Source: a virus
Taxonomy: Duplodnaviria > Heunggongvirae > Uroviricota > Caudoviricetes
Virus record (IMG/VR): IMGVR_UViG_2571042438_000008
Reading direction: 5' to 3' (one strand)
DNA length: 47,797 nt
Below the pieces are notes generated by a model. The model saw only the letters and a program-made list of their open reading frames with translations, did no database searches and was not told the DNA's origin. Numbering within the stretch: position 1 is the stretch's first letter; each line of letters begins with the position of its first letter. Shown here piece after piece: positions 320-47,797 of this stretch. Made by a program: the position numbers and the translations under genes.

Positions 320-3166
320 GTGAGTAAATTATTATTTACGATGACTGACGCCGGGCGTAAGGCGCTGGTTAATGCCAACAAGACTGGAACAAATAAAGTT
401 GAGATCGTTTCTGTTGGTTTAGGTAGTAGATATTATGCCACATCAACCACACAAACAAAAATAACAGATGAAATAAAGCGACTTACCACAATAGGAGGCA
501 AAGTCGTTTCTCCTGATACCATTCATGTAACTGCGAAGGATGATAGTAAAGATGAGTATGCTGTCCATACAATAGGTTTGTATACAAATAAAGGAACATT
601 GTTTGCTGTATACTCGCAAGAACAAGTAATAATAAATAAAGCATCTTCTACAATTGCTTTAATATCAAGTGATATAGCAATTAAAAATCTTGATACTAAA
701 AACATTACATTTGGTGATGTTGAGTTTATTAACCCTCCCGCAACCGAAACTGTTGTTGGAGTAGCAAGATTTGCTAATGAACAAGAAATTGATGCAGGTA
801 CAGATGATTCCCTGGCTGTTTCAGCAAAGCGGCTTAAGCAAGCTATTGTAAAACATGAGCAATCACGTAATCATCCTGATGCAACTTTAACATCAAAAGG
901 CATTGTTCAACTCAGTAATGCCACCAATAGCACGTCTGAAAAGCTCGCAGCGACGCCTAAGGCTGTTAAGGCTGCATATGACCTGGCTGACGGAAAATAT
1001 ACCGCCCAGAATGCCACCACGGCACAAAAAGGGATAGTTCAGCTCAGTAGTGCCACTAACAGTACGTCTGAAACGCAGGCGGCAACGCCAAAAGCGGTCA
1101 AGGCAGCAAATGACAACGCAAATTCACGTCTGGCGAAAAATCAGAACGGTGCAGATATCCAGGATAAATCAGCTTTTCTGGACAATGTTGGCGTTACCAG
1201 CCTGACGTTTATGAAAAACAATGGCGAAATGCCGCTTGATGCTGATCTGAATACGTTTGGTCCTGTTAAGGCTTATTCAGGTATCTGGTCTAAAGCAACA
1301 TCCACCAACGCAACACTGGAGAAAAATTTCCCGGAAGATAATGCTGTCGGTGTGCTTGAGGTTTTTGCTGCCGGCAATTTTGCAGGTACGCAACGCTTTA
1401 CCACGAGAGACGGCAATGTATACATGCGTAAACTCGCCAATAAGTGGAATGGCACTGATGGTCCGTGGGGCGTATGGCGTCACACTCAATCTGCTACCCG
1501 CCCTTTGAGTACGACTATAGACCTGAATACGCTTGGAGCCGCCGAGCATCTTGGTTTATGGCGTAACAGTAGCTCAGCTATAGCTTCATTTGCCCGCAAT
1601 TATCCGGAAGAAGGGAGCTATGCTCAGGGGATTCTCGAAGTTCTTGAAGGCGGCGGATATTCGCGAACACAGCGTTACACTACCAGTCGTGGAAATATGT
1701 ATGTACGCTGCCTTACCGCAAGCTGGGATGCATCAAATCCGCAGTGGGGACAGTGGCTAAGAATCGGCAGCCAGACTGCAAGCGGTTTCTTTGAAGGCGA
1801 TCTGAATAATCTGACCGATCCTGGTATTTACAGTGTTACAGGAAAGGCAACAAACGGTCCGATGCTGGACGCTGCTGGGGCGACATTGCTTGGGATACTG
1901 GAAGTAATCAGGCGTTTTGATGGTGTATCTGTCTGGCAGCGTTACACAACCACAGGAAAATCAGAAACCACACAGGGGCGCACTTTTGAGCGCGTCTACG
2001 CCGGGAGCACATGGACCGAATGGCGAGAAGTGTATAACTCCTTTTCGTTGCCCCTGAATCTGGGTATTGGCGGCGCAGTGGCAAAACTCACCAGCCTGGA
2101 CTGGCAGACCTACGACTTTGTGCCGGGCAGTCTGATAACCGTTCGGCTTGATAACATGACCAACATTCCCGACGGTATGGACTGGGGCGTCATTGATGGT
2201 AACCTGATAAACATCGCTGTTGGCCCAAGTGATGATACCGGTACGGGGCGCTCAATGAAGGTATGGCGCAGCACTGTAAGTAAAGCCAACTACCGCTTTT
2301 TTATGGTGCGCATTTCAGGAAATCCGGGAAGCCGCACGATCACAGCAAGACGAGTACCAATCATTGACGAAGCCCAGACATGGGGCGCGGAACAGACATT
2401 CAGCGGTGGTCTTTCAGGCGAACTATCCGGCAATGCTGCTACAGCAACAAAGCTGAAAACGGCAAGGACAATTAACGGCGTAAAATTTGACGGCTCGGCA
2501 AATATTGAAGCGTTTCCGCCAGGTGTTCCGCTGCCGTGGCCATCAGATACGCCACCTGCAGGTTATGCAATCATGCAGGGGCAGACGTTTGATAAGGCAG
2601 CATATCCGAAACTGGCTATTGCCTATCCTTCTGGTGTTATTCCAGATATGCGCGGCTGGACAATCAAGGGCAAACCCGCCAGTGGTCGGGCCGTATTGTC
2701 TCAGGAACAGGATGGCATTAAATCGCACACCCACAGTGCCAGCGCATCCAGTACGGATTTGGGTACGAAAACCACATCGTCGTTTGATTACGGTACTAAA
2801 TCAACGAATAACACAGGTGCACATACCCACAATGTATCTGGTACTGCAAATAGTGCTGGCGCACATACTCATACCGTTCCATTAAGGAGACCAAACAGTG
2901 GCGGTATGAATTTCGACTGGCTGGATGGTTCATCAAGTGGCACGGTGGTGGGGAATGGAACTGTGCCTTCTTCTGGCGCACATACCCACTCAGTATCAGG
3001 TACCGCTACAAGTGCTGGGGCACATGCACACACTGTTGGTATTGGCGCTCATACGCACTCTGTTAAGATTGGTTCACATGGACACACCATCACCGTTAAC
3101 GCTGCTGGTAACGCGGAAAACACCGTTAAAAACATCGCATTTAATTATATTGTGAGGCTTGCATAA
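320..3166 (+). CDS. Tail fiber protein (P2 gpH / Mu S-like), 948 aa
   Basis: Position after the gpJ/gpI baseplate genes; two copies of the phage tail fibre repeat ([25 protein letters not shown]); three beta-rich internal repeats; C-terminal His-rich GAHTH.V repeats. Confidence 0.85.
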
Positions 3167-4725: not shown

Positions 4726-4740
4726 ACCACGTAACGTGGT
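4726..4740. promoter_or_regulatory. Repressor-type operator dyad ACCACGTAACGTGGT in the repA upstream region
   Basis: Perfect 5-N5-5 inverted repeat identical in arms to the three dyads in the cI/cro-like intergenic region; followed directly by TATGAT (4741-4746). Confidence 0.5.
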
Positions 4741-7141: not shown

Positions 7142-7216
7142 AGCCCCGTTTTTCTTGAAATTATAACCCACAGGTTATATAGTTAGTGATATAAACTACA
7201 GGTTATAGGATTGAGC

Positions 7217-7564: not shown

Positions 7565-7863
7565 TGAGAACATTAGATGAGGTGATTGCCAGCCGTTCAC
7601 CTGAAAGCCAGGCGCGAATTAAAGAAATGGCAGATGAGATGATTCTTGAGGTCGGCTTGCAGATGATGCGTGAAGAACTCCAGTTATCACAAAAACAGGT
7701 TGCTGAGGCGATGGGTATAAGCCAGCCAGCAGTAACAAAGCTGGAGCAGCGCGGAAATGATTTAAAGCTGGCGACATTAAAGCGTTACGTTGAAGCTATG
7801 GGAGGCAAATTAAGCCTGGATGTTGAGCTTCCTACAGGAAAGCGAGTAGCGTTCCATGTCTAA
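7564..7863 (+). CDS. Type II antitoxin, HigA-like XRE-family HTH
   Basis: HTH segment LSQKQVAEAMGISQPAVTKLE; 99 aa; toxin-first gene order. Confidence 0.6.
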   Translation: MRTLDEVIASRSPESQARIKEMADEMILEVGLQMMREELQLSQKQVAEAMGISQPAVTKLEQRGNDLKLATLKRYVEAMGGKLSLDVELPTGKRVAFHV

Positions 7864-7896
7864 CATAATGTAAGGCCCCATTGGGGCCTTACTTAT

Positions 7897-8181
7897 TTAC
7901 TTACCATTTTTGCGGTTTTTTTCGGACTTCATAAGCTGGCTAACGCGCCCAGGTGTGATATTTAACATGCGGCTTACTTCAGCTTGTGATCCTACTTCCT
8001 CTACTAGCGATGCAACATAGCGAGATTTTCCTGAGGAGGTTAATCCATTATATGTTGCTCGTGCGACTTTTCCCTGAGCTTCTCTCATATCAACTAATGC
8101 CTGAGCAACCTGCTCAAAACCTTTAATTGTTACTTCTGTTAATGCTCGAATAGCATCAATTTCAGATTTTGGTTTAGCCAT
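7897..8181 (-). CDS. Small DNA-binding regulator (C-terminal HTH)
   Basis: C-terminal SQAEVSRMLNITPGRVSQL; divergent from cassette copy 1; dyad just upstream of its start. Confidence 0.45.
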   Translation of the reverse strand: MAKPKSEIDAIRALTEVTIKGFEQVAQALVDMREAQGKVARATYNGLTSSGKSRYVASLVEEVGSQAEVSRMLNITPGRVSQLMKSEKNRKNGK

Positions 8182-8228
8182 TTGGCACCTCCAATTGTTT
8201 AAAATGTGTTAATTGTAAAATTCAGCCG

Positions 8229-8247
8229 ATACCATGTTCAATGGTAT
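8229..8247. promoter_or_regulatory. Dyad ATACCAT-GTTCA-ATGGTAT upstream of the 7897..8181 regulator gene
   Basis: Perfect 7-bp inverted repeat with outer TTCAGC/GCTGAA arms (8221-8259). Confidence 0.35.
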
Positions 8248-8335
8248 ACCATTGCTGAAATGTCTTTTTCAAGACCTTGCCAATAAGCTAAACAAAAATG
8301 TTTAATGTGCAGCCTAAAAAAGCACCAGTCACTAT

Positions 8336-8448
8336 TATTTATATAATTATAGATTTATATAAAAAGTGCTTTACGGGTGGGAAAAAATTTCCTATGGTTA
8401 TACCCGAAACCGAGCGATACCCGCCCTGGTTAAACCGGAGATAACCCG
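8336..8448 (+). promoter_or_regulatory. Promoter-leader cassette, copy 1 (AT-rich dyad motif, -35 TTTACG 8370-8375, 17-nt spacer, -10 TATGGT 8393-8398, conserved leader, GGAGA RBS)
   Basis: ~88 bp near-identical to 17311-17398 and 24189-24276 (two substitutions seen in this copy); sigma70-like hexamers with 17-bp spacing. Confidence 0.55.
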
Positions 8449-8829
8449 ATGAGCATGATTAAAATCCGCAAAAACGCTTTCCTTAAAATTCAAACTATCC
8501 TGGCTGGTTCTGTCGGCGTGATTTGCCGTTCTTCTTCAAGCCGCATCGATGACGGCTACGATGATGAGTATCGTGTGTCCTCGTGCGATGAGGCTTTAAC
8601 CTGGCTGAAGGAGAATCAGGAACGTGCCCAGGTATATCTGGAAACAGAGAACGGCAATCAGATGCTGCGTATTAGCGGTCGTTATGGATTTGAAACTACA
8701 TTCATGGCCTATTTTAATCAGGCTTACTTTGACAAGGAGCTGGCCTGGTACACTGACCGCATGAGCAAAAGCGAGCCAGCCCCGATTACACCGCCGAACA
8801 ATAAACCATTTTTATTCCTCGTTAAGTAA
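8449..8829 (+). CDS. Hypothetical protein (126 aa), first gene after cassette copy 1
   Basis: ORF with GGAGA RBS 9 nt upstream; no recognisable domain. Confidence 0.5.
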   Translation: MSMIKIRKNAFLKIQTILAGSVGVICRSSSSRIDDGYDDEYRVSSCDEALTWLKENQERAQVYLETENGNQMLRISGRYGFETTFMAYFNQAYFDKELAWYTDRMSKSEPAPITPPNNKPFLFLVK

Positions 8830-8892
8830 ACACAATGCGCAAAGTGTCATTTTGACACTTTGCGAGTGTTAATATTGTTCGAGGAGGATGCT

Positions 8893-9166
8893 ATGACGGG
8901 TTATGAATTGAAATTATGGCGTCGTGGGATGAATTGGACGCAGGAGCGAGCCGCTGAAGAGTTTGGGATATCGTTGGCTACATATAAGCGATATGAGAAG
9001 GGTGAGCCGCCGAGGGGGCATTGAGATGGCCATTCGCGTTCTGTCGTTTGACGATATGGTTAAGGATCTTTCACACCTTGATAAAGATGCGATTCTGTTA
9101 AGGCTGCAAACCCTTGTATGGGAAAAGGTTAAAGTGTCGTCAGAATTGGAACAAGGGATCAAATGA
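8893..9166 (+). pseudogene. XRE-type HTH protein gene interrupted by a +1 frame change at a G5 run (9014-9018)
   Basis: GAGGAGG RBS then ATG 8893; HTH-like segment LWRRGMNWTQERAAEEFGISLATYKRYEKGE; frame 1 stops at 9022-9024 and the sequence continues in the +1 frame to 9166; removing one G would give a single 90-aa ORF. Confidence 0.4.
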
Positions 9167-13996: not shown

Positions 13997-14011
13997 ACCA
14001 CAAAATGTGGT
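13997..14011. promoter_or_regulatory. Operator dyad ACCACAAAATGTGGT
   Basis: Perfect ACCAC-N5-GTGGT between the cI stop and the 13961 start. Confidence 0.5.
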
Positions 14012-14053: not shown

Positions 14054-14710
14054 TCATAACCAGTTGACAACACTAACTACGCGGCCAAGAACTTTATAAC
14101 GCTTAAATTCCTCGTTATTCAGATGCTTAGTGTTCATTTCAGCATCCCTTTCGGTTGACAGCATAACAGCATTGTCACCCGGTATGACTCTACAGTGCCT
14201 CAAAACAACCAGGCCATTTCTGTCTTCAAGGGCATAGATCCCCTCATGAATCTCTGTATCGTCTGTATTAATCAGGACTTGGGAGCCTGGGGATATTGTT
14301 GGTGACATTAACTCATCGTTGCTCTGGAGAACTGACAGAGACGATGGGTTGATGTTCTTGCTTCGTAGAATCTCCTGTTCTATCGCCAGCACTGGCTTTT
14401 CTCCGGCGTGCGATGCTATGTCATTTTTTATAGCTACAAGCCCAGGAATAACAGGAGCGTTAGTATTCTGGGGTGGGAACGGGTTATCTGTTAAGCACGC
14501 GATATAAGGCGCTGATGCTTTCAGGGCGTGCGCGATTTTCTTGATGGCAGGTATAGATGGTTGTCTTAATCCGGCCTCATAGTTCTGCAAGGTGCTTAAG
14601 CCTATTCCAGTGACTTGCTGGAGATCTCCGGCAGTCATGCCGGATTGTTTCCGTAGAGTCTGAATGCGCAGACCTATTTCTTTCTTGATGTTCTCGTCGT
14701 TGCTTTTCAT
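14054..14710 (-). CDS. CI-type prophage repressor (N-terminal XRE HTH plus C-terminal S24/LexA-like peptidase domain)
   Basis: HTH-like segment MTAGDLQQVTGIGLSTLQNYEAG; 218 aa with a C-terminal S24-type fold as judged from the translation; divergent from the cro-like gene with operators between. Confidence 0.85.
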   Translation of the reverse strand: MKSNDENIKKEIGLRIQTLRKQSGMTAGDLQQVTGIGLSTLQNYEAGLRQPSIPAIKKIAHALKASAPYIACLTDNPFPPQNTNAPVIPGLVAIKNDIASHAGEKPVLAIEQEILRSKNINPSSLSVLQSNDELMSPTISPGSQVLINTDDTEIHEGIYALEDRNGLVVLRHCRVIPGDNAVMLSTERDAEMNTKHLNNEEFKRYKVLGRVVSVVNWL

Positions 14711-14747: not shown

Positions 14748-14762
14748 ACCACATTTAGTGGT
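14748..14762. promoter_or_regulatory. Operator dyad ACCACATTTAGTGGT (cI-proximal)
   Basis: Perfect ACCAC-N5-GTGGT in the cI/cro-like intergenic region. Confidence 0.6.
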
Positions 14763-14829: not shown

Positions 14830-14865
14830 CTCACGATATGTGGTTTTAATACCACGTATCGTGGT
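14830..14865. promoter_or_regulatory. Two adjacent operator dyads (CTCACGATATGTGGT 14830-14844; ACCACGTATCGTGGT 14851-14865), cro-like proximal
   Basis: Tandem dyads with 21-bp centre spacing just upstream of the 14885 start. Confidence 0.6.
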
Positions 14866-14884
14866 TTTAACTGGAGTTCGTTAA

Positions 14885-17286: not shown

Positions 17287-17404
17287 AATCTATAAATATA
17301 TAATTATAGATTTATATAAAAAGTGCTTTACAGGTGGGAAAAAATTTCCTATGGTTATACCCGAAACCGAGCGATACCCGCCCTGGTTAAACCGGAGAAA
17401 TCTG
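17287..17404 (+). promoter_or_regulatory. Promoter-leader cassette, copy 2 (dyad AAATCTATA-N12-TATAGATTT, -35 TTTACA 17327-17332, -10 TATGGT 17350-17355, conserved leader, GGAGA RBS)
   Basis: Near-identical to copies 1 and 3 over ~88 bp; 17-bp spacer. Confidence 0.55.
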
Positions 17405-18472
17405 ATGAATAAACAAGTAATTATTTCTGACTGGATCAACAACCCTAACAGCCTGTTAAGCACTGATACTGGCTACCTATTACGCCATGTTAATGGTCGT
17501 ATGGTCAAAAGCGATGAGCACGAAACCTTTTTCTTTGTTGAAGACGATGGGCGTATCTATGAGGATGGTTACTCTTATGAAGCCCAAACTGGTTGTATCC
17601 CTGCGGAGCTGGTGGACGTAACAGAAGATCTGCGCAAAGCATGGCTTGAACAGCAGCAGCGCGGAGATGATTACGTAAACACCTATCAGGAACGCCAGAA
17701 CGCGCGTCTTGCCCGATATATTGCTCGTGCAGAAAAAGCCAGAAAAGAAGGTGCGGTAGCGCATAAGCGAGCGCATGACCTGTTGGATGTGATCCCGTTA
17801 GGCCAGCCGATTTTAGTTGACCATTATAGCGCGAAAGGCCATCGCCGCCGTTTGTCTAAAGCTGATGCGTTATTCAGAAAAGCGTTTGTTGAATGCGAAA
17901 GTAAAGCATCACACTACGAGAGCAAAGCCGCAGGTGTTGGTCGTAATGGAATTTCGTCTGATGATCCTGATGCGCTATTTAAGTTGCTTCGTAAGCTGCA
18001 AGGCTGCATGAAGTCACACGTCAAAATGAAGGCCGCAAATAAGGCCATTCGCAAATACAAAAAAGACCAAATACAGCAGCTTTCTGCATTAATCGATCTC
18101 AGGTTTACAGAAAGCGAAGCCAAAGAGTTACTGGCCGGAGATTTCTGTGGGCACATCGGATTCCCTTCATACGCACTGAGCAACAATAACGCCGAAATCA
18201 AACGACTACAGAGCCGTATTAAGGAGCTTGAATCGGTCAAGTCTGTAACAGGAGCACAGCGCGAAGAATACGACGGCTTTTCTATGGAGATAGATCCAGA
18301 GGATAACCGCATCCTGTTTTATTTCCCTGGCAAACCAGAGGCAAACATTCGTTCGCTGCTTAAATCACGCGCCTTTAAGTGGAGTCCAACCCGTAATGCA
18401 TGGGTTCGCAAGATTACTCCAAACGCCCTGGCTGATGCCCGATATCTAAAAGAATCGCTATTGAAAGCCTGA
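17405..18472 (+). CDS. Large hypothetical protein (355 aa), first gene after cassette copy 2
   Basis: Start set at ATG 17405 (GGAGA RBS); the upstream ATG 17351 lies in the conserved leader. Confidence 0.6.
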   Translation: MNKQVIISDWINNPNSLLSTDTGYLLRHVNGRMVKSDEHETFFFVEDDGRIYEDGYSYEAQTGCIPAELVDVTEDLRKAWLEQQQRGDDYVNTYQERQNARLARYIARAEKARKEGAVAHKRAHDLLDVIPLGQPILVDHYSAKGHRRRLSKADALFRKAFVECESKASHYESKAAGVGRNGISSDDPDALFKLLRKLQGCMKSHVKMKAANKAIRKYKKDQIQQLSALIDLRFTESEAKELLAGDFCGHIGFPSYALSNNNAEIKRLQSRIKELESVKSVTGAQREEYDGFSMEIDPEDNRILFYFPGKPEANIRSLLKSRAFKWSPTRNAWVRKITPNALADARYLKESLLKA

Positions 18473-23583: not shown

Positions 23584-24171
23584 ATGGAGGCAATTGCATT
23601 GTTTAATCTGATTTATGCAGATCCCCCCTGGGAATACAAAGATAAGTGTAAGGATGGGAATCGTGGAGCTGGTTTTAAGTATCCAACGATGAAAGCTGAG
23701 GATATTGCTCGTATTCCTGTCTGGCAGCTTGCTAATCCTGAATCGTGTTTGTTGGCCATGTGGTGGGTTCCGACTCAGCCAGAAGAAGCGTTGCTGGTGG
23801 TGAAAGCATGGGGATTCAGGCTTATGACCATGAAGGGCTTCACATGGAACAAATGTGGTAGCCGACAACCAGATAAGCTGGTGATGGGGATGGGGCATAT
23901 GACTCGTGCAAACAGTGAAGATTGCTTGTTTGCGGTAAAAGGCAAATTGCCGACCCGCCTTGATGCGGGGATCATTCAGTCGTTTACATCGCCTCGTCTG
24001 GAGCATTCTCGGAAGCCTGATGTGGTTCGTGACAAGCTGGTAAGGCTGTTAGGTGATGTTCCTCGTATTGAGCTGTTTTCTCGCGGTGATTTACCTGATG
24101 GTTGGCATGGCTGGGGCAACCAGTGCAATGGAGGTATCCAGTTGCATGATGCTCTCTGGCAAGTGGCATAA
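23584..24171 (+). CDS. MT-A70-family N6-adenine methyltransferase
   Basis: DPPW motif (LIYADPPWEY) and family-typical N-terminal layout. Confidence 0.8.
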   Translation: MEAIALFNLIYADPPWEYKDKCKDGNRGAGFKYPTMKAEDIARIPVWQLANPESCLLAMWWVPTQPEEALLVVKAWGFRLMTMKGFTWNKCGSRQPDKLVMGMGHMTRANSEDCLFAVKGKLPTRLDAGIIQSFTSPRLEHSRKPDVVRDKLVRLLGDVPRIELFSRGDLPDGWHGWGNQCNGGIQLHDALWQVA

Positions 24172-24282
24172 AATTATATAATTATATATTTATATAAAAA
24201 GTGCTTTACAGGTGGGAAAAAATTTCCTATGGTTATACCCGAAACCGAGCGATACCCGCCCTGGTTAAACCGGAGAAATCTG
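24171..24282 (+). promoter_or_regulatory. Promoter-leader cassette, copy 3 (-35 TTTACA 24205-24210, -10 TATGGT 24228-24233, conserved leader, GGAGA RBS)
   Basis: Near-identical to copies 1 and 2. Confidence 0.55.
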
Positions 24283-24552
24283 ATGAAAGTACAAGACCGT
24301 GAAGTAGTAAAAAACCTCCTGCAATACCTGACCTCAAAAAACCTGACGGGCAGCGTTGAGTTCCGTGAAGCGTTAAAACATTTCAACGTCACTACGGTTT
24401 ATCGTTGGGAAAACAAACATTCTGAAAGACCGTATGTGGTGGATGTTTTTGCGCCTGATATTGAGTGCGGTTTTGAGCGTCATTCGTTCAAGGAGAAACA
24501 TTCTGCTGATTTTTTTTGTGAGGTTGTATGTGCGGCAGGAGATGATGAGTGA
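24283..24552 (+). CDS. Hypothetical protein (90 aa), first gene after cassette copy 3
   Basis: Start set at ATG 24283; the upstream ATG 24229 lies in the conserved leader. Confidence 0.5.
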   Translation: MKVQDREVVKNLLQYLTSKNLTGSVEFREALKHFNVTTVYRWENKHSERPYVVDVFAPDIECGFERHSFKEKHSADFFCEVVCAAGDDE

Positions 24553-28888: not shown

Positions 28889-29445
28889 TCATCGTGTGGT
28901 TGATGGTGTTGTTATGCAGAGTGTATTCACTGTGTTCTGTAGCGTCGCTCGCTGGCTGTCTGTGGGTGGGCACGAGCATCGTTTCATCGTCCGGCAGAAT
29001 TGGGTCCTTCTGGCCAAAAGCGTTGGATGCGGGTCATTCGAACCCCGATGTTCGGCTAGCTAAACGTGAAAAAAGTTAGGTTAAAAGTTGCGGTAAAAGA
29101 AATTTACCCATCTCATTGAAAAATATTGGGAAAACGTGATTTTTTGCTGTGCTTGTGATGGTGAAAAGAAAGTAGAGAATTTTCTTTTAGATCATCAAGA
29201 TACGCGCAGATCTTTAACCAATGCAAGGCTGTTTTGATAAAAATCTTTATAAATCATGCAAATACATCCAATCTTTTAACCAAAACACCATCGGAAGATC
29301 CTTTTTACTTATAAAAACTTAATAAAACCAGATAATTATGCTGGTTTGTGTGATTTTTTATGAGTAAAAAGATCGTCATTTTTCTCTTTTAGTATCAATA
29401 AGTTAAACATTTTTCTTTAACCTGTTGTGTTATGGCGGTTAAAAA

Positions 29446-30036
29446 ATGGCTCTAAAAATCGAATATTTACCAGTCGGTAAGCTGCTCAGATATGCCAAAA
29501 ATTCACGGACTCATTCAGATGAGCAAGTTGAACAGTTGGTGAACAGTATCCGTGAGTTCGGTTTCACTAATCCTGTGCTGATCGATGAAAAGAATGAACT
29601 GATTGCGGGGCATGGGCGGCTTGCAGCAGCCGAAATTCTGGAAATGGATAAAGTTCCGGCGATTCGGTTGAGTAACCTTTCTGAAAAACAGAAGAAGGCG
29701 TACAGGATTGCAGATAACAAGCTGGCCTTAAATGCTGGCTGGGATATGCAGCTTCTGGCCGAAGAAGTCAAAGAGTTAATGGATGATGATTTTGATATTG
29801 ATCTGCTTGGGTTTAATGATGCAGAGCTTGACGAAATGTTAAGCGATGAACAGCCGCAGGAAGAAGACGATAATTCTTCCCCTGTTGTTCAAATTAAGTA
29901 CCTGGCTATTGATAAAGAACGTATTCCCGCGACGGATATGGAAATTGCATTGTTGCTGGATGTTTATCGTCAGTACCACGACGCGCATGAAACGCATGAG
30001 GGATTTGTTCAGTATCTTGCTAATGGTTGCAAGTAA
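29446..30036 (+). CDS. ParB N-terminal domain protein, paralog 2, immediately upstream of terminase
   Basis: LIDEKNELIAGHGRLAAAEILEMDKVPAIRL; clearly alignable with paralog 1 over the N-terminal ~110 aa by eye. Confidence 0.7.
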   Translation: MALKIEYLPVGKLLRYAKNSRTHSDEQVEQLVNSIREFGFTNPVLIDEKNELIAGHGRLAAAEILEMDKVPAIRLSNLSEKQKKAYRIADNKLALNAGWDMQLLAEEVKELMDDDFDIDLLGFNDAELDEMLSDEQPQEEDDNSSPVVQIKYLAIDKERIPATDMEIALLLDVYRQYHDAHETHEGFVQYLANGCK

Positions 30037-40741: not shown

Positions 40742-43534
40742 ATGGCCAGCAATAAGAACTTTAAGCTGGCTTTTGAAATTGGCGGCAAAGTTGCCGCCTC
40801 TCTCCCCAAAAGTTTTACTACAGCTAATCAGGCTGTTGCTAAATTAAATGCCGAGCTTGCTGGATTAACGAAAGAACATGGGGAAATTCAAAAGCTACAA
40901 TCTGTAAAAGTAAAGGTTGGACAGACTGCCCTCGAATATCATAAAGCTGCCGCTCGCGTTGAAGAGTTACAGAAGCAAATAAAAAACACGGCCAATCCAA
41001 CCAGAGCGATGCTTCGTGACTTTGAGAAGGCAAAAACACATTCATCGAATTTACGAGCATCACTACGTTCTCAGCGTGAAGAACTGGCCGCTTTAAAGTC
41101 TGCCTATCAGGGAGCTGATACATCTGCCAGAGCTTTGGCCTCAAGAGAGAAAGAGCTTAAAGCCAGCATTGATCGTAATCGTGAGGCTCAGGCCCGTAGC
41201 GTTGAGCAGGTTAACCGCTACAGAACGGCTTTGGCTTTAGCCAGAGCAAATGTTCAGCAAGTGAAAAAACAGCAGGAGGAACTTAACCGGGCATTAGAAA
41301 AACAACGTATTGATAAAATTAACAGCTATAAAAATGCGTTGGCTGAAGCACGGAAAAATGTTCTTGCAGTAAAACGTGCTCAGGAGGAGTTAAACCGCGC
41401 GTTGGAAAGGCAGCGTGAATTGAAGCGAGAGCATCTTGGTGAGGCAAAGAGTCAACTTGTAAGGTCAGGATTACAAACTGGTGCTGTAGCGGCTGGTGCA
41501 TTTGCTGCTGCTAACAATGCAGCAAATTTCAATCGTGAAAACAAAATGATTGGTCTTACGGCAGATATGAAGCCGGAAGAAGTTCAGGCGATGGGGCAGG
41601 CGATGCTTGTTACCGGAACGGCTACCAACCAGTTTGCATCTGATATTCAGGCCGCTCAGGGTTTTCTCGTCGCTGCTGGGCAGGATTATAAAGAGGCTCA
41701 GGCGAATCTACTAACTATTGGGCGAACAGCTACAGCTACTGGCTCTGATATCCTCGATGTCTCGAAAGCATCATTTACATTAAGTGACTCATTGAAGATT
41801 GATCCATCTCAAATGAAGTCTGCAATGGGGATTCTGGTTCAGGCAGGGAAAGAGGGGAACTTTGAATTTAAAGATATGGCCAAAAATCTTCCTGTGCTTG
41901 GTGCTCAGTTCCAGGCATTAAAAATGGGAGGTAAAGAAGCAGCCGCGACGATGGGTGCAGCTTTGCAGATAGCTCGCAAGGGGGCTGCAACTTCGGATGA
42001 GGCTGCTAATAATATGAACAACTTTTTGGCAAAAATACTTTCCCCTGAAACACTAAAAAAAGCAAAGAAAAATTTCGGTGTAGATTTATATAAAATTGTT
42101 ACAACAGCGCAGAAAAAAGGGAAGAATCCATTCGAAGCTGCAATGCATTCTGTCATGAAAATGACTAAGAACGGAGATCAGAAGTTACTTGGTGAACTAT
42201 TTGGCGATATGCAGGTTCAGAACTTTGTTCGTCCGATGATTCAAAACTGGAAGGAATACCAGAGAATCAAAGCAACATCTCTTGGAGCTGGAAGTGCTGT
42301 TATTGACCGCGATTTTGCCAACATAACGAAAGATAATGCGGAGCGATTGAAACAATTACGTATTCAGGCTAGCAATGCATCATTAAGTTTTGGTCAGGCC
42401 TTGCAACCTGCTTTGAATGCCGCGCTTAGTGTTTTGGTTCCGCTGATTACAAAAATTAGTGAATTTGTAGCTAACAACCCCAATTTTGTGTCTCAGATAG
42501 TGATGGCGGCAGGTGCGTTTCTAACCATGAAAAGTGTGGTTATAGCGTGTAGGGTAGCTATGCTGGCTTTATCTGTAGCGACAAAGCTAACACCCTTCGG
42601 GTGGATTCAGATGGCTATATCTGCGCTGGTTGCCGCAGGAATATTGCTCTATCAGAATTGGGATAAGATCAGAGATTATGCTGTCAGAGTTTGGCCTTCT
42701 GTTAAGGAATATACAGTTAAATCATTTGAGGCTATAAAAAACTTTATCTTAAACTTTGACCTCAATGGATGGATTATATCTATGTTTGGTAAAGCATGGG
42801 ATTATCTTTCCAACATAAACTGGAGTTCGGCAGGTGTAAGAATTTACAGTACATTAATTAGTGCTTTTAAATGGATGTCTCCGCTTCCGTTCTTAATTAA
42901 AGCATTTAAAATTACAACAAATTACCTTTCTGGCATTAACTGGAGCGAAACAGGAAAGAAAATCATAGATACACTGGTATCTGTTTTTATGCGTTTTTCA
43001 CCAGTTGGACTCTTTATAAGAGCATTCCAATCTGTAACGACTTATTTATCTGGAATAAACTGGAGTGAGTCAGGCGCAAAAATAATTGAGACGTTAATCA
43101 CTGGGATAAAATCAAAAGCAAATGCTTTAATTAATGAAGTGAAAGGCGTTTTTTCTTCTGTACGTGAGTATTTACCGTTCTCTGACGCGAAAAAAGGTCC
43201 ATTCTCACAGCTAACAAAGTCAGGTGGTGCAATAATGACTACTCTGGCATCAGGTGTTAGCAGGAATAACAGCTTACAGAATGCAATAGCAAGCAAGTTC
43301 GGGCAATCAAATTTATCACCTCACGGGATATCTGCCGCCGGGACTTCTGGACCTCGCCAGAACGTTAACGCTGTGACTGGTGGAATAACCTATTCACCTG
43401 TAATCAATCTTCCGGCTGGTTCACCAAAGGAAACTGAGGCGGCAGCTAAAAGAGCATTAGATGCGGGATATTCTGATTTTGAGAAGAAATTGAGTGCTCA
43501 TATGTTCCAACAACGGAGATTAAGTTTTGGATGA
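40742..43534 (+). CDS. Tail tape measure protein
   Basis: 930 aa; long coiled-coil-like N-terminal half, hydrophobic segments, repeated W-containing motifs (GINWSE). Confidence 0.85.
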   Translation: MASNKNFKLAFEIGGKVAASLPKSFTTANQAVAKLNAELAGLTKEHGEIQKLQSVKVKVGQTALEYHKAAARVEELQKQIKNTANPTRAMLRDFEKAKTHSSNLRASLRSQREELAALKSAYQGADTSARALASREKELKASIDRNREAQARSVEQVNRYRTALALARANVQQVKKQQEELNRALEKQRIDKINSYKNALAEARKNVLAVKRAQEELNRALERQRELKREHLGEAKSQLVRSGLQTGAVAAGAFAAANNAANFNRENKMIGLTADMKPEEVQAMGQAMLVTGTATNQFASDIQAAQGFLVAAGQDYKEAQANLLTIGRTATATGSDILDVSKASFTLSDSLKIDPSQMKSAMGILVQAGKEGNFEFKDMAKNLPVLGAQFQALKMGGKEAAATMGAALQIARKGAATSDEAANNMNNFLAKILSPETLKKAKKNFGVDLYKIVTTAQKKGKNPFEAAMHSVMKMTKNGDQKLLGELFGDMQVQNFVRPMIQNWKEYQRIKATSLGAGSAVIDRDFANITKDNAERLKQLRIQASNASLSFGQALQPALNAALSVLVPLITKISEFVANNPNFVSQIVMAAGAFLTMKSVVIACRVAMLALSVATKLTPFGWIQMAISALVAAGILLYQNWDKIRDYAVRVWPSVKEYTVKSFEAIKNFILNFDLNGWIISMFGKAWDYLSNINWSSAGVRIYSTLISAFKWMSPLPFLIKAFKITTNYLSGINWSETGKKIIDTLVSVFMRFSPVGLFIRAFQSVTTYLSGINWSESGAKIIETLITGIKSKANALINEVKGVFSSVREYLPFSDAKKGPFSQLTKSGGAIMTTLASGVSRNNSLQNAIASKFGQSNLSPHGISAAGTSGPRQNVNAVTGGITYSPVINLPAGSPKETEAAAKRALDAGYSDFEKKLSAHMFQQRRLSFG

Positions 43535-43745: not shown

Positions 43746-44736
43746 AACGCTTTTTGATGTTATATATCAGAATGTAAATATTACCGCTCATATGTCACCT
43801 GATGTTTTGTCAATGTCTTATACAGATAATGAAGATGGTCAGGTCGATGATATTTCTATTATATTAAAAAATGATGATGGGAAATGGTCTGGAGACTGGA
43901 CACCTAAAAAGGGTGATTTTATTGATTTGAGCTTTAAGCCTATAAATCAAATCGTCCTTGAGTGCGGGAAATTCCAGGTAGATGGCATAACTTGCTCTGG
44001 ACCACCTTCTGTGGTTGAGGTAACTGCTGTTTCTGTTCCTATTTCATCAGGCATTAGACGTGATTTAAAAAGTAATGCATGGGAAAAAACAACTCTTAAA
44101 GATATAGCAACTTCTATAGCTAAATTAGCTAACCTTGAACTGTTGTTTCTTATTGATGGTGATAGTAATCCATATTATGCACGTGAAGATCAAATGGAGG
44201 AAAGCGATTTAAAATTTCTCCATCGACTTTGCCAGGATGAAGGGTTGTCGTTAAAGGTCACTGATAGCCAATTAATAATATTTGCTCAAGAGATGTTTGA
44301 GCAAAAAGATCCTATCGCTACGCTTACGTTAGGTATTGATGAGATAATCAGATATAGCTTTAGCACACAATCTACAGATTTGTATAAAAGTTGCACGTGC
44401 AAATATCGCGTACCTAAAAAAAGAAAGTCGCTTTCGTATACTTGGGTAGATCCATCCGTAGAAGAAGGGTCGAATCTTAAGATAAGAAAACTGGTAGCTA
44501 ATTTAGATGAAGCAAAACGTAAGGCAAAGGCTGCTTTGCGGCTTAAAAATAGATATCAAAATACCGGATCTTTAGTATTGGTTGGAGACACCAGATTGGT
44601 AGCTGGTGTAACTATAAATCTGGAGGGATTCGGTTCATTTTCTGGAAAATATCTTATATCGAAAGCTGTGCATTCAATTGGGACTAGTGGTTATACCACC
44701 TCGATTGATGTCCGAAGAGTAATTAATGGGTATTAA
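43735..44736 (+). CDS. Baseplate hub / late control D-like protein (P2 gpD-like)
   Basis: 333 aa; position after gpX-like; central EESDLKFLHRLCQDEGL resembles the gpD family as recalled. Confidence 0.65.
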   Translation: MLRKTLFDVIYQNVNITAHMSPDVLSMSYTDNEDGQVDDISIILKNDDGKWSGDWTPKKGDFIDLSFKPINQIVLECGKFQVDGITCSGPPSVVEVTAVSVPISSGIRRDLKSNAWEKTTLKDIATSIAKLANLELLFLIDGDSNPYYAREDQMEESDLKFLHRLCQDEGLSLKVTDSQLIIFAQEMFEQKDPIATLTLGIDEIIRYSFSTQSTDLYKSCTCKYRVPKKRKSLSYTWVDPSVEEGSNLKIRKLVANLDEAKRKAKAALRLKNRYQNTGSLVLVGDTRLVAGVTINLEGFGSFSGKYLISKAVHSIGTSGYTTSIDVRRVINGY

Positions 44737-47261: not shown

Positions 47262-47797
47262 TATCTTTAATGTTAGCTTGTTGGATGTTTTACCTCCTAA
47301 CTTAGCTAGCGATCCCAACGTGATAGCTATGTCGAAAGCTATTGATGATGAACTACAAGCAATTAACAATTTAATATATAAGACAGAAATATATAGCGTT
47401 GTTGATAACCTGGACTCAGTTGTTCTCGATCATTTAGCTTGGCAATGGAATGCTGATACATGGAGGGATAGTTGGCCTGTATTGTTAAAGCGTTCTGTTT
47501 TTAAATCAATAATACGAACAAAGCGAATAAAGGGTACAAGGGCAGCGGTTGAAGATGTAGTAAATAGCTTGGGTGGAGAGGTAAACATAACAGAATGGTT
47601 TGAAACATCACCACCTGGCGAACCATATACAGCCTCAATTGTTGCTTCGATTAACTCTTTTGATGGTGCTGTTCCTTCGAAAGAGATGTTGGAGGATACG
47701 TTAAGAAGTATCAAGAGTGCAAAGTCGGCAAGAACACTATTTACATTTTCGCAAGCAACCAATGTTTCAGGTGGTGTTGGTATTGTCGGTGCTTTCC
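47254..47797 (+). CDS. Baseplate gpI-like protein, 5' part (open at window end; continues at 1..289 through the terminal duplication)
   Basis: ATG 47254 overlapping the gpJ-like stop; ORF not terminated within the window; frame matches 23..289. Confidence 0.65.
   Translation, partial: MADIFNVSLLDVLPPNLASDPNVIAMSKAIDDELQAINNLIYKTEIYSVVDNLDSVVLDHLAWQWNADTWRDSWPVLLKRSVFKSIIRTKRIKGTRAAVEDVVNSLGGEVNITEWFETSPPGEPYTASIVASINSFDGAVPSKEMLEDTLRSIKSAKSARTLFTFSQATNVSGGVGIVGAF
47547..47797. repeat. Terminal direct repeat: 47547..47797 is identical to 1..251
   Basis: Read directly: both begin ggttgaagatgtagtaaatagc and end gtcggtgctttcc. Confidence 0.9.

Follow-up and report, generated by a model that had tools for sequence, protein, structure and literature searches.

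Our main reading, to which we give a probability of roughly 50% as a whole, is that a small DNA-binding protein of 94 aa acts on a CTAAAC palindrome ahead of its own gene, that a perfect dyad lying closer to the gene is a site for the CI-like repressor of the same replicon, and that the gene is an accessory one which does not regulate the repeated cassettes. The 94-aa protein would bind CTAAAC-N6-GTTTAA at 8288–8305 and, when bound, would regulate, most likely repress, its own transcription. The dyad would lie on the core promoter, where it covers the −35 of the proximal predicted promoter and the −10 of the distal one, and binding of the CI-like repressor (14054–14710) to this variant operator would place the accessory gene under prophage-immunity control.

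All positions refer to the window, the whole stretch of 47,797 nt that was analysed. Bases 1–251 are repeated at 47547–47797, a terminal 251-nt duplication that represents assembly overlap. Thus, the replicon is complete and circular, with 47,546 bp, and the window reads as a circular E. coli phage-plasmid of ~47.5 kb. The E. coli plasmid CP125027.1 is 100% identical to it over a test stretch, and PLSDB holds 146 records with similar sequence. One annotated sister, NZ_CP024865.1 (L001), is a phage-plasmid with a lambda-like head and a contractile tail that also encodes an IncFII-family RepA, ParA, a higBA-like toxin-antitoxin (TA) pair, an ORF6N/Rha antirepressor-like gene and a 218-aa HTH protein which is CI-like (HTH_3 and a weak S24 peptidase match). 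Direct repeats occur inside a structural gene at 2816–3037 (GAHTH-like 63-nt repeats, 159 nt apart) and likewise at 42802–43083 (three 42-nt units with 120-nt spacing). Additionally, the promoter region of the higBA-like pair contains TATAACC-CACA-GGTTATA (7162–7179) and a second ACAGGTTATA repeat at 7198–7207. We predict that these TATAACC-N4-GGTTATA repeats are likely the antitoxin operator. The heptamer GGTTATA of this region recurs in the −10 region of every cassette. Downstream of cassette 1, a 90-aa HTH_3 gene is frameshifted by one extra G at about 9014–9018, where the run reads GGGGG in the window versus GGGG in NZ_CP024865.1, resulting in ORFs 8860–9024 and 8963–9166. The extra G is either a homopolymer sequencing error or a natural inactivation.

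The 94-aa ORF described in the first-pass annotation is present on the minus strand with an ATG start (Table 1) and, as stated there, is transcribed away from cassette copy 1. Its description as a small DNA-binding protein also holds, given an HTH predicted from AF2 helices and from Pfam HTH-family matches below threshold. The AF2 model, built with 13 sequences, is all-helical with a pLDDT of 92 and has helices at residues 5–45, 49–63, 66–73 and 77–91. The resulting architecture is a 40-residue N-terminal helix, then a three-helix bundle (49–91) and a basic tail, SEKNRKNGK. Pfam matches to HTH families fall at residues 57–88 (YdaS, Sigma70_r4), every one of them below threshold, and neither KORA (PF16509, at E ≤ 0.1) nor HTH_3 matched the protein. 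Within PHROGs, the protein belongs full-length to phrog_15590 (E = 9.4e-64, residues 1–94 on profile positions 1–94), a group annotated there as of unknown function. Foldseek searches with the model against PDB and BFVD gave no match with E < 0.001, and a PDB sequence search returned noise only. There was no match in a tblastn search of the phage collection or to the PADLOC anti-phage defence models, and a literature search found the protein accessions and the PHROG mentioned in no paper. The protein is probably dimeric. We consider it probably an ordinary accessory regulator with predicted autoregulation. The hairpin at 7870–7892 is the terminator for both the higA-like gene and the 94-aa gene, and it marks the left edge of the accessory module.

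Table 1. Coordinates of the genes, repeats, promoter-like sites and candidate operators discussed in the text.
Feature	Position	Strand	Description
ACCAC site ACCACGTAACGTGGT	4726–4740		37 nt upstream of the repA (IncFII_repA family) start codon
Accessory module	7864–8336		About 470 bp: terminator, 94-aa gene, control region; between the higBA-like pair and cassette 1
Bidirectional hairpin terminator GTAAGGCCCCATTGGGGCCTTAC	7870–7892		Between the convergent higA-like and 94-aa genes
94-aa CDS	7897–8181	−	Predicted long N-terminal helix and C-terminal sigma-4/KorA-like HTH; member of phrog_15590
Shine-Dalgarno GGAGGTG	8186–8192	−	Read from sequence, 5–11 nt upstream of start
Proximal promoter-like site TTGAAC-18-TACAAT	8212–8241	−	Consensus scan; −35 box at dyad centre
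Flagged dyad ATACCAT-GTTCA-ATGGTAT	8229–8247		Reread as a variant of the ACCAC-N5-GTGGT set
ACCAY site within the flagged dyad	8231		Intergenic
Overlapping 16-bp palindrome CAATGGTATACCATTG	8239–8254		Perfect; adds a third half-site
Distal promoter-like site TTGAAA-18-TATACC	8243–8272	−	Hexamers read by eye
Family palindrome CTAAACAAAAATGTTTAA	8288–8305		Predicted cognate operator of the 94-aa protein
Cassette copy 1	8334–8460	+	127-nt repeat, before a 126-aa gene (phrog_8090)
ACCAC site ACCACAAAATGTGGT	13997–14011		Between the CI-like gene and the 124-aa/parA operon; position conserved in Salmonella
CI-like repressor	14054–14710	−	HTH_3 and weak Peptidase_S24 match; candidate binder of the set
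Immunity-region site ACCACATTTAGTGGT	14748–14762		Perfect
Imperfect immunity-region copies	14788 and 14830		ACCAC-N5-GTGGT type
Immunity-region site ACCACGTATCGTGGT	14851–14865		Perfect
Cassette copy 2	17291–17417		127-nt repeat, before a 355-aa DUF3560/primase-like gene
ACCAG-ATAAG-CTGGT	23868–23882		Inside an MT-A70 methyltransferase gene (per NZ_CP024865.1)
Cassette copy 3	24169–24295		127-nt repeat, before an 89-aa gene
ACCAC-CTTCT-GTGGT	44001–44015		Inside a VgrG/Pvc8-family baseplate/tail gene (per NZ_CP024865.1)

The protein family is rare, unnamed and plasmid-borne. The exact 94-aa sequence is found on at least 1000 assembly contigs, where every label is 'hypothetical', and the family as a whole is small, with 12 clusters in a search of 5.8 billion sequences and 30 representatives at E < 1e-3 among 1.84 billion sequences. 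Across 31 members, Pfam finds Sigma70_r4 in 14, with weak matches to HTH_3 in four and to KORA in three (best 5.5e-4). Homologues reside on a conjugative Serratia plasmid (110 kb), on the ColE1-like Rahnella plasmid pHW114A (5.2 kb), on a Pseudomonas plasmid or ICE where the gene adjoins a Rep gene and a T4SS, on Thauera pTX1, on three E. coli conjugative cfr plasmids (27–28 kb) and on many metagenomic contigs. No gene neighbours are shared across 24 homologue loci beyond close relatives. The 126-aa genes beside the window and Rahnella homologues were considered as a conserved neighbour and rejected, as the two genes are unrelated.

Upstream of the homologues lies a palindrome with the consensus CTAAAC-N6-GTTTAG/C. 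The window version, CTAAAC-N6-GTTTAA, is 50 bp upstream of the flagged dyad and is the site overlooked in the first-pass annotation; at two or fewer mismatches it is the sole match on the plasmid to the family palindrome. At the same threshold there are 30 matches in 5.2 kb of upstream sequence from 26 loci, while the background rate elsewhere in those 26 loci is 0.066 per kb, an upstream enrichment of about 87-fold. Shuffled upstream regions gave a mean of 0.27 matches and a maximum of 2, and the loci that score no match have close variants. The palindrome is shared by homologues from Serratia, Rahnella, Pseudomonas, Alteromonas, Methylococcales and others, on about 25 unrelated replicons. 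One of its carriers is pHW114A, whose annotated DNA-binding proteins are only the family member and a TA antitoxin.

The arrangement of the palindrome is also conserved. Two copies exactly 23 bp apart are found in at least 16 loci. At 17 or more loci, the best predicted promoter takes its −35 hexamer TTTACA from the right arm of the proximal copy, GTTTAC, and the A that follows it, always at an offset of +13. A proximal arm over the −35 is the classic autorepressor layout, which is thus predicted in distant homologues (loci with 23-bp pairs and −35 overlap: L007, L012, L019, L020, L032, L034, L035, L037–L040 and L045–L048). In such distant members the sigma-4-like HTH appears to recognise a −35-like sequence. 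At a further locus (L023), the arms are changed to CTTAAC-N6-ATTAAG in three copies, and the otherwise invariant Gly before the recognition-helix Arg is replaced in the protein (APR versus PGR/AGR); this single case of covariation is suggestive. The enterobacterial clade of the window has one palindrome only, located 15–47 bp upstream of either predicted −35 and not over it, so repression is less obvious here and activation is possible. We predict that the 94-aa protein has its own operator in the CTAAAC palindrome, and we regard this assignment as probable. The autoregulation claimed in the earlier annotation is likely, as there is a conserved cis-element before the gene, but the part of the claim that placed the operator at the flagged dyad is probably wrong, because it is a different palindrome that is conserved.

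A second operator-like site, TTAAACATTTTTCTTTAA at 29403–29420, shares 15 of 17 bases with the window CTAAAC-type site and is found 25 nt upstream of a ParB_N-domain gene (29446–30036). In p853EC2, a sister that has no 94-aa gene, this region is 100% identical. We therefore rejected a co-evolved target here, and a dedicated one is improbable. No further family sites were found on the window plasmid or on 100 kb of the Serratia plasmid with a homologue; that plasmid stretch has one site, and its matches at two or fewer mismatches equal the shuffle expectation.

The conjugative plasmid p737A1-27K-cfr carries the same TA pair and gene, and its 94-aa protein is 95% identical to that of the window and fully identical over residues 62–94, the HTH. 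Comparison of the two regions gave an identity of 100% for the terminator, 95.5% for the CDS, 96% for the start of the cassette and 16/18 for the CTAAAC palindrome. The flagged dyad matches at 6/19, equal to random, and the rest of the spacer at 31–62%, with a short block around TTGAAA (8267–8272, a candidate −35) also kept. p737A1 contains neither a CI-like gene nor the flagged dyad. Since the HTH is identical and the palindrome is kept while the dyad is absent, the reading head goes with the CTAAAC palindrome and not with the dyad, and the dyad is probably not the operator of this protein as had been proposed. In the conjugative cfr plasmids L015 (CP100008.1, 5323–5602) and L049, the TA pair and the 94-aa gene are present, and a cassette is cut off by IS26 after its first ~50 nt. 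Evidently, a conjugative resistance plasmid has acquired a piece of phage-plasmid DNA.

The dyad itself is real and is perfect, a 7+5+7 arrangement of ATACCAT (8229–8235), GTTCA and ATGGTAT (8241–8247), and position 8229 is indeed 48 nt from the start-codon A at 8181. The outer arms TTCAGC (8221–8226) and GCTGAA (8254–8259) exist as described, but they are asymmetric, being 2 versus 6 nt from the inner arms, and they carry no weight. The overlapping palindrome has the core ATGGTATACCAT (8241–8252), which extends to CAATGGTATACCATTG; a C-to-G change at 8249 breaks this palindrome in 12 of the 23 sister records. Of six ATACCAT/ATGGTAT heptamers in the plasmid, three are inside 24 nt at the flagged dyad. 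Perfect dyads with 7-nt arms and a spacer of 0–8 nt number 106 in the plasmid, compared with about 29 per shuffled plasmid, and about 0.2–0.6 of them would be expected by chance in the 267-nt spacer before the 94-aa gene. One perfect dyad is therefore weak evidence. The flagged dyad rises above chance because it matches the ACCAY-N5-RTGGT set, which has six perfect sites on the plasmid, where 0.17 would be expected and 100 shuffles gave at most 2.

Two promoter-like sites are predicted here, and both are imperfect. The proximal −10, TACAAT, reads TGTAAT in 12 of 23 sister records (about half), and the distal −10, TATACC, is without the final T. The distal −10 is covered by the right half of the flagged dyad. 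The distal −35 block TCTTGAAAAAGACA is kept in p737A1, where the −10 position reads TAGCAT. A 71-nt dyad block is found in 23 phage-plasmid records only. Every one of these has the same 19-bp dyad and the same CTAAAC palindrome, whereas differences occur in the third half-site and in the −10-like hexamer; this invariance carries little weight, the records being 96–100% identical. Two other roles for the dyad were considered and rejected. There is no Rfam match in 7800–8600 that would make it an RNA element, and the higBA promoter has a different palindrome from that expected if the dyad were the antitoxin operator.

The spacer that separates the CI-like gene from the early operon contains repeated ACCAC-N5-GTGGT sites, and within it positions 14849–14867 match the flagged dyad with 3 mismatches. 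The dyad shares with the set the outer 4 nt of the arms, the 5-nt spacer and the A/T flanks, it lies intergenically at a predicted promoter, and 6 of its 7 arm bases are as in the 14849 site. What sets it apart from all five ACCAC sites is the innermost arm base, T for C in one arm and A for G in the other. In Salmonella pAR-0407-1, whose CI is 65% identical, the immunity region, the CI/par spacer and the region ahead of repA each contain ACCAC-N5-GTGGT; the arms are the same as in the window, the spacers are different, and the repA site is about 190 nt before a shorter annotated repA. Similarly, S. marcescens YL4 p2 (CI 33% identical) has GTGGTT half-sites at the same three kinds of place and a symmetric variant, ACTAC-N5-GTAGT, in its immunity region.

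Across all E. coli sisters, whether they carry the 94-aa gene or lack it, the CI-like protein keeps at least 98% identity, indicating that the ACCAC sites are not those of the 94-aa protein. Because strict promoter scans at the other ACCAC sites called no promoter, designating these sites as operators rests on their position and conservation. RepA iterons were rejected as the source of the sites, since this RepA is of the IncFII family, which is not known to use iterons, and the sites also flank the CI-like gene. The intragenic palindromes at 23868 and 44001 may be chance matches. The distribution of the set suggests that replication and partition, too, are under the control of the prophage repressor. 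We further predict that the CI-like repressor binds the flagged dyad, a tentative assignment whose odds we place a little below even.

The three cassettes read as one promoter-leader unit placed before three unrelated genes. Each unit consists of an AT-rich palindrome (TTTATATAA-N8-TTATATAAA), TTTACR-17-TATGGT, a leader of about 45 nt, a Shine-Dalgarno sequence and an ATG; the promoter-like site of copy 1 is TTTACG-17-TATGGT, and copy 1 gave no match in Rfam. The accessory module is present in about 23 of 58 E. coli-type sisters (about 40%). About 60% of the sister phage-plasmids keep all three cassettes without a 94-aa gene, for example p853EC2 and Salmonella pAR-0407-1. In p853EC2 a different terminator comes after the antitoxin gene, with cassette 1 immediately behind it, and the junction in pAR-0407-1 is the same. 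Thus, the 94-aa gene is an optional add-on in this phage-plasmid family. Neither the family palindrome nor the ACCAY motif occurs near cassettes 2 and 3. Since the cassettes are kept without the gene and copies 2 and 3 have neither motif, we conclude with high confidence that the 94-aa protein is not the cassette regulator it had been proposed to be. The alternative proposal, that it regulates the plasmid maintenance block, finds no family palindrome before the rep, par or TA genes.

These findings bear differently on the other explanations of the locus. The model of the first-pass annotation, in which the protein has its operator at the dyad and regulates either the three cassettes or the maintenance genes, would account for the overlap of the dyad with a predicted −35 of the 94-aa gene and for its invariant presence with the gene in 23 of 23 phage-plasmid records. 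We consider this model very doubtful. An identical HTH occurs in p737A1 without the dyad, no such dyad precedes any other homologue while a different palindrome is common to nearly all, and the half-site ATACCAT is unrelated to CTAAAC/GTTTAG. Furthermore, the cassettes are unchanged in sisters without the gene, and neither site is found at copies 2 and 3. It is also conceivable, though rather unlikely, that the dyad serves a different factor, be it a host protein, the neighbouring 90-aa HTH_3 protein or the antitoxin, or that it is functionless, with its likeness to the ACCAC sites being coincidental. All seven plasmid matches to ACCAN-N5-NTGGT are perfect palindromes, against about 0.7 matches expected by our own estimate (4^-8 over 47.5 kb, not a shuffle), and a coincidence would have to extend to the common outer arms, spacer and flanks, to the arm bases shared with the 14849 site and to the symmetric arm variant inside the S. 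marcescens p2 immunity region. The antitoxin would be expected at TATAACC-N4-GGTTATA, which differs. Such a coincidence would be consistent with the innermost arm base that sets the dyad apart from the five ACCAC sites, with the abundance of perfect 7-nt dyads in shuffled plasmids and with the likeness of the sister records, which makes invariance uninformative.

For the CTAAAC palindrome, the alternative is that it is an activator site, or that it acts on the divergent cassette-1 promoter instead of or as well as on its own gene. The geometry of the enterobacterial site lends itself to this, as 12–25 bp separate it from the best −35 downstream and its centre falls at roughly −57 to −70, and as it stands between two divergent promoters, 76 bp from the cassette −35; p737A1 likewise keeps the cassette start beside the module. 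However, the site overlaps the −35 of the family gene itself in most of the family, the divergent neighbour differs per lineage and cassette 1 functions in sisters without the site. The spacing between site and promoter is also out of helical phase (offsets of 30, 33, 35 and 43). We therefore judge an activating or divergent role improbable, and we favour autoregulation through the CTAAAC palindrome together with a dyad read by the CI-like repressor.

If the favoured reading is right, it corrects a plausible but wrong wiring diagram, in that the dyad beside a small regulator is probably another protein's site. An uncharacterised, widespread protein gains a predicted operator and a KorA-like reading head on a different scaffold. 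Additionally, the conserved ACCAC-N5-GTGGT set seems to couple the control of lysogeny to the expression of repA and par in a common family of phage-plasmids from E. coli and Salmonella. Nothing here is surprising in kind. As a long shot, the 94-aa family may consist of stand-alone, self-limiting sigma-4/KorA-like binders acting in trans on other replicons or the host while, separately, a CI-like regulon couples immunity, repA, partition and the accessory gene. Possible targets would be TTTAGC-type KorA/KorB operators of co-resident plasmids, or −35-like GTTTACA sequences. If true, action in trans would explain why there is one own site per replicon and no conserved neighbour.

The predicted CI-like regulon resembles those of known phage-plasmids. 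The C1 operators of P1 are dispersed, and the CB repressor of N15 controls repA. As in these systems, where master-repressor operators are scattered before replication, maintenance and accessory genes, the ACCAC set shows such a layout and the dyad fits within it. The C1 sites of P1 are asymmetric and 17 bp long, whereas the window repressor is lambda-CI-like (HTH_3/S24-type) with predicted symmetric 15-bp sites, of which the dyad would be a sequence variant. The 94-aa family also recalls sigma-70 region 4 in the 14 of 31 members with a Sigma70_r4 match and in the half-site GTTTAC(A), which resembles a −35 hexamer, although such scores are typical of any HTH and the window protein reaches 19.9 against a threshold of 24.1 bits. 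Unlike sigma-70 and the ParB/KorB type of HTH protein, the window protein is a stand-alone protein of 94 aa that lacks both further sigma regions and a ParB N-terminal domain.

The likeness to KorA (TrfB) of IncP-1 RK2/RP4 concerns both the protein and its predicted site. Each is a small (about 100 aa), plasmid-encoded HTH protein, and the autoregulation, dimerisation and repressor role of KorA are predicted for the window protein. With the KorA sequence of PDB 2n5g/2w7n, hhalign placed window residues 64–86 on KorA 35–57 at a probability of 57–68%, over 21–23 residues only and with 35–38% identity. The HTH reads LGLTRGAVSQ in KorA and LNITPGRVSQ in the window protein, and the sigma-4-like HTH geometry noted for KorA is seen in the window protein as well. 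KorA Arg48 and Gln53 make base contacts (PMC2665229). Gln53 aligns with the conserved Q82, whereas Arg48 aligns with P77 of the window protein, the invariant Arg being two residues later. The KorA operator OA is GTTTAGCTAAAC (PMC2680271), and its half-site GTTTAG is identical to the family half-site. However, the half-sites abut in KorA and are everted and 6 bp apart in the window. The domain order is also reversed. KorA has an N-terminal four-helix DNA-binding domain and a C-terminal beta-strand/helix dimerisation module (PMC2665229), while the HTH of the window protein is C-terminal and a long N-terminal helix replaces the C-terminal dimerisation 'gripper'. The window family further differs in having one site per replicon, compared with seven for KorA, and no KorB partner is encoded in the window. 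By analogy, then, the 94-aa protein is predicted to work like a KorA-type autorepressor while standing outside the KorA family.
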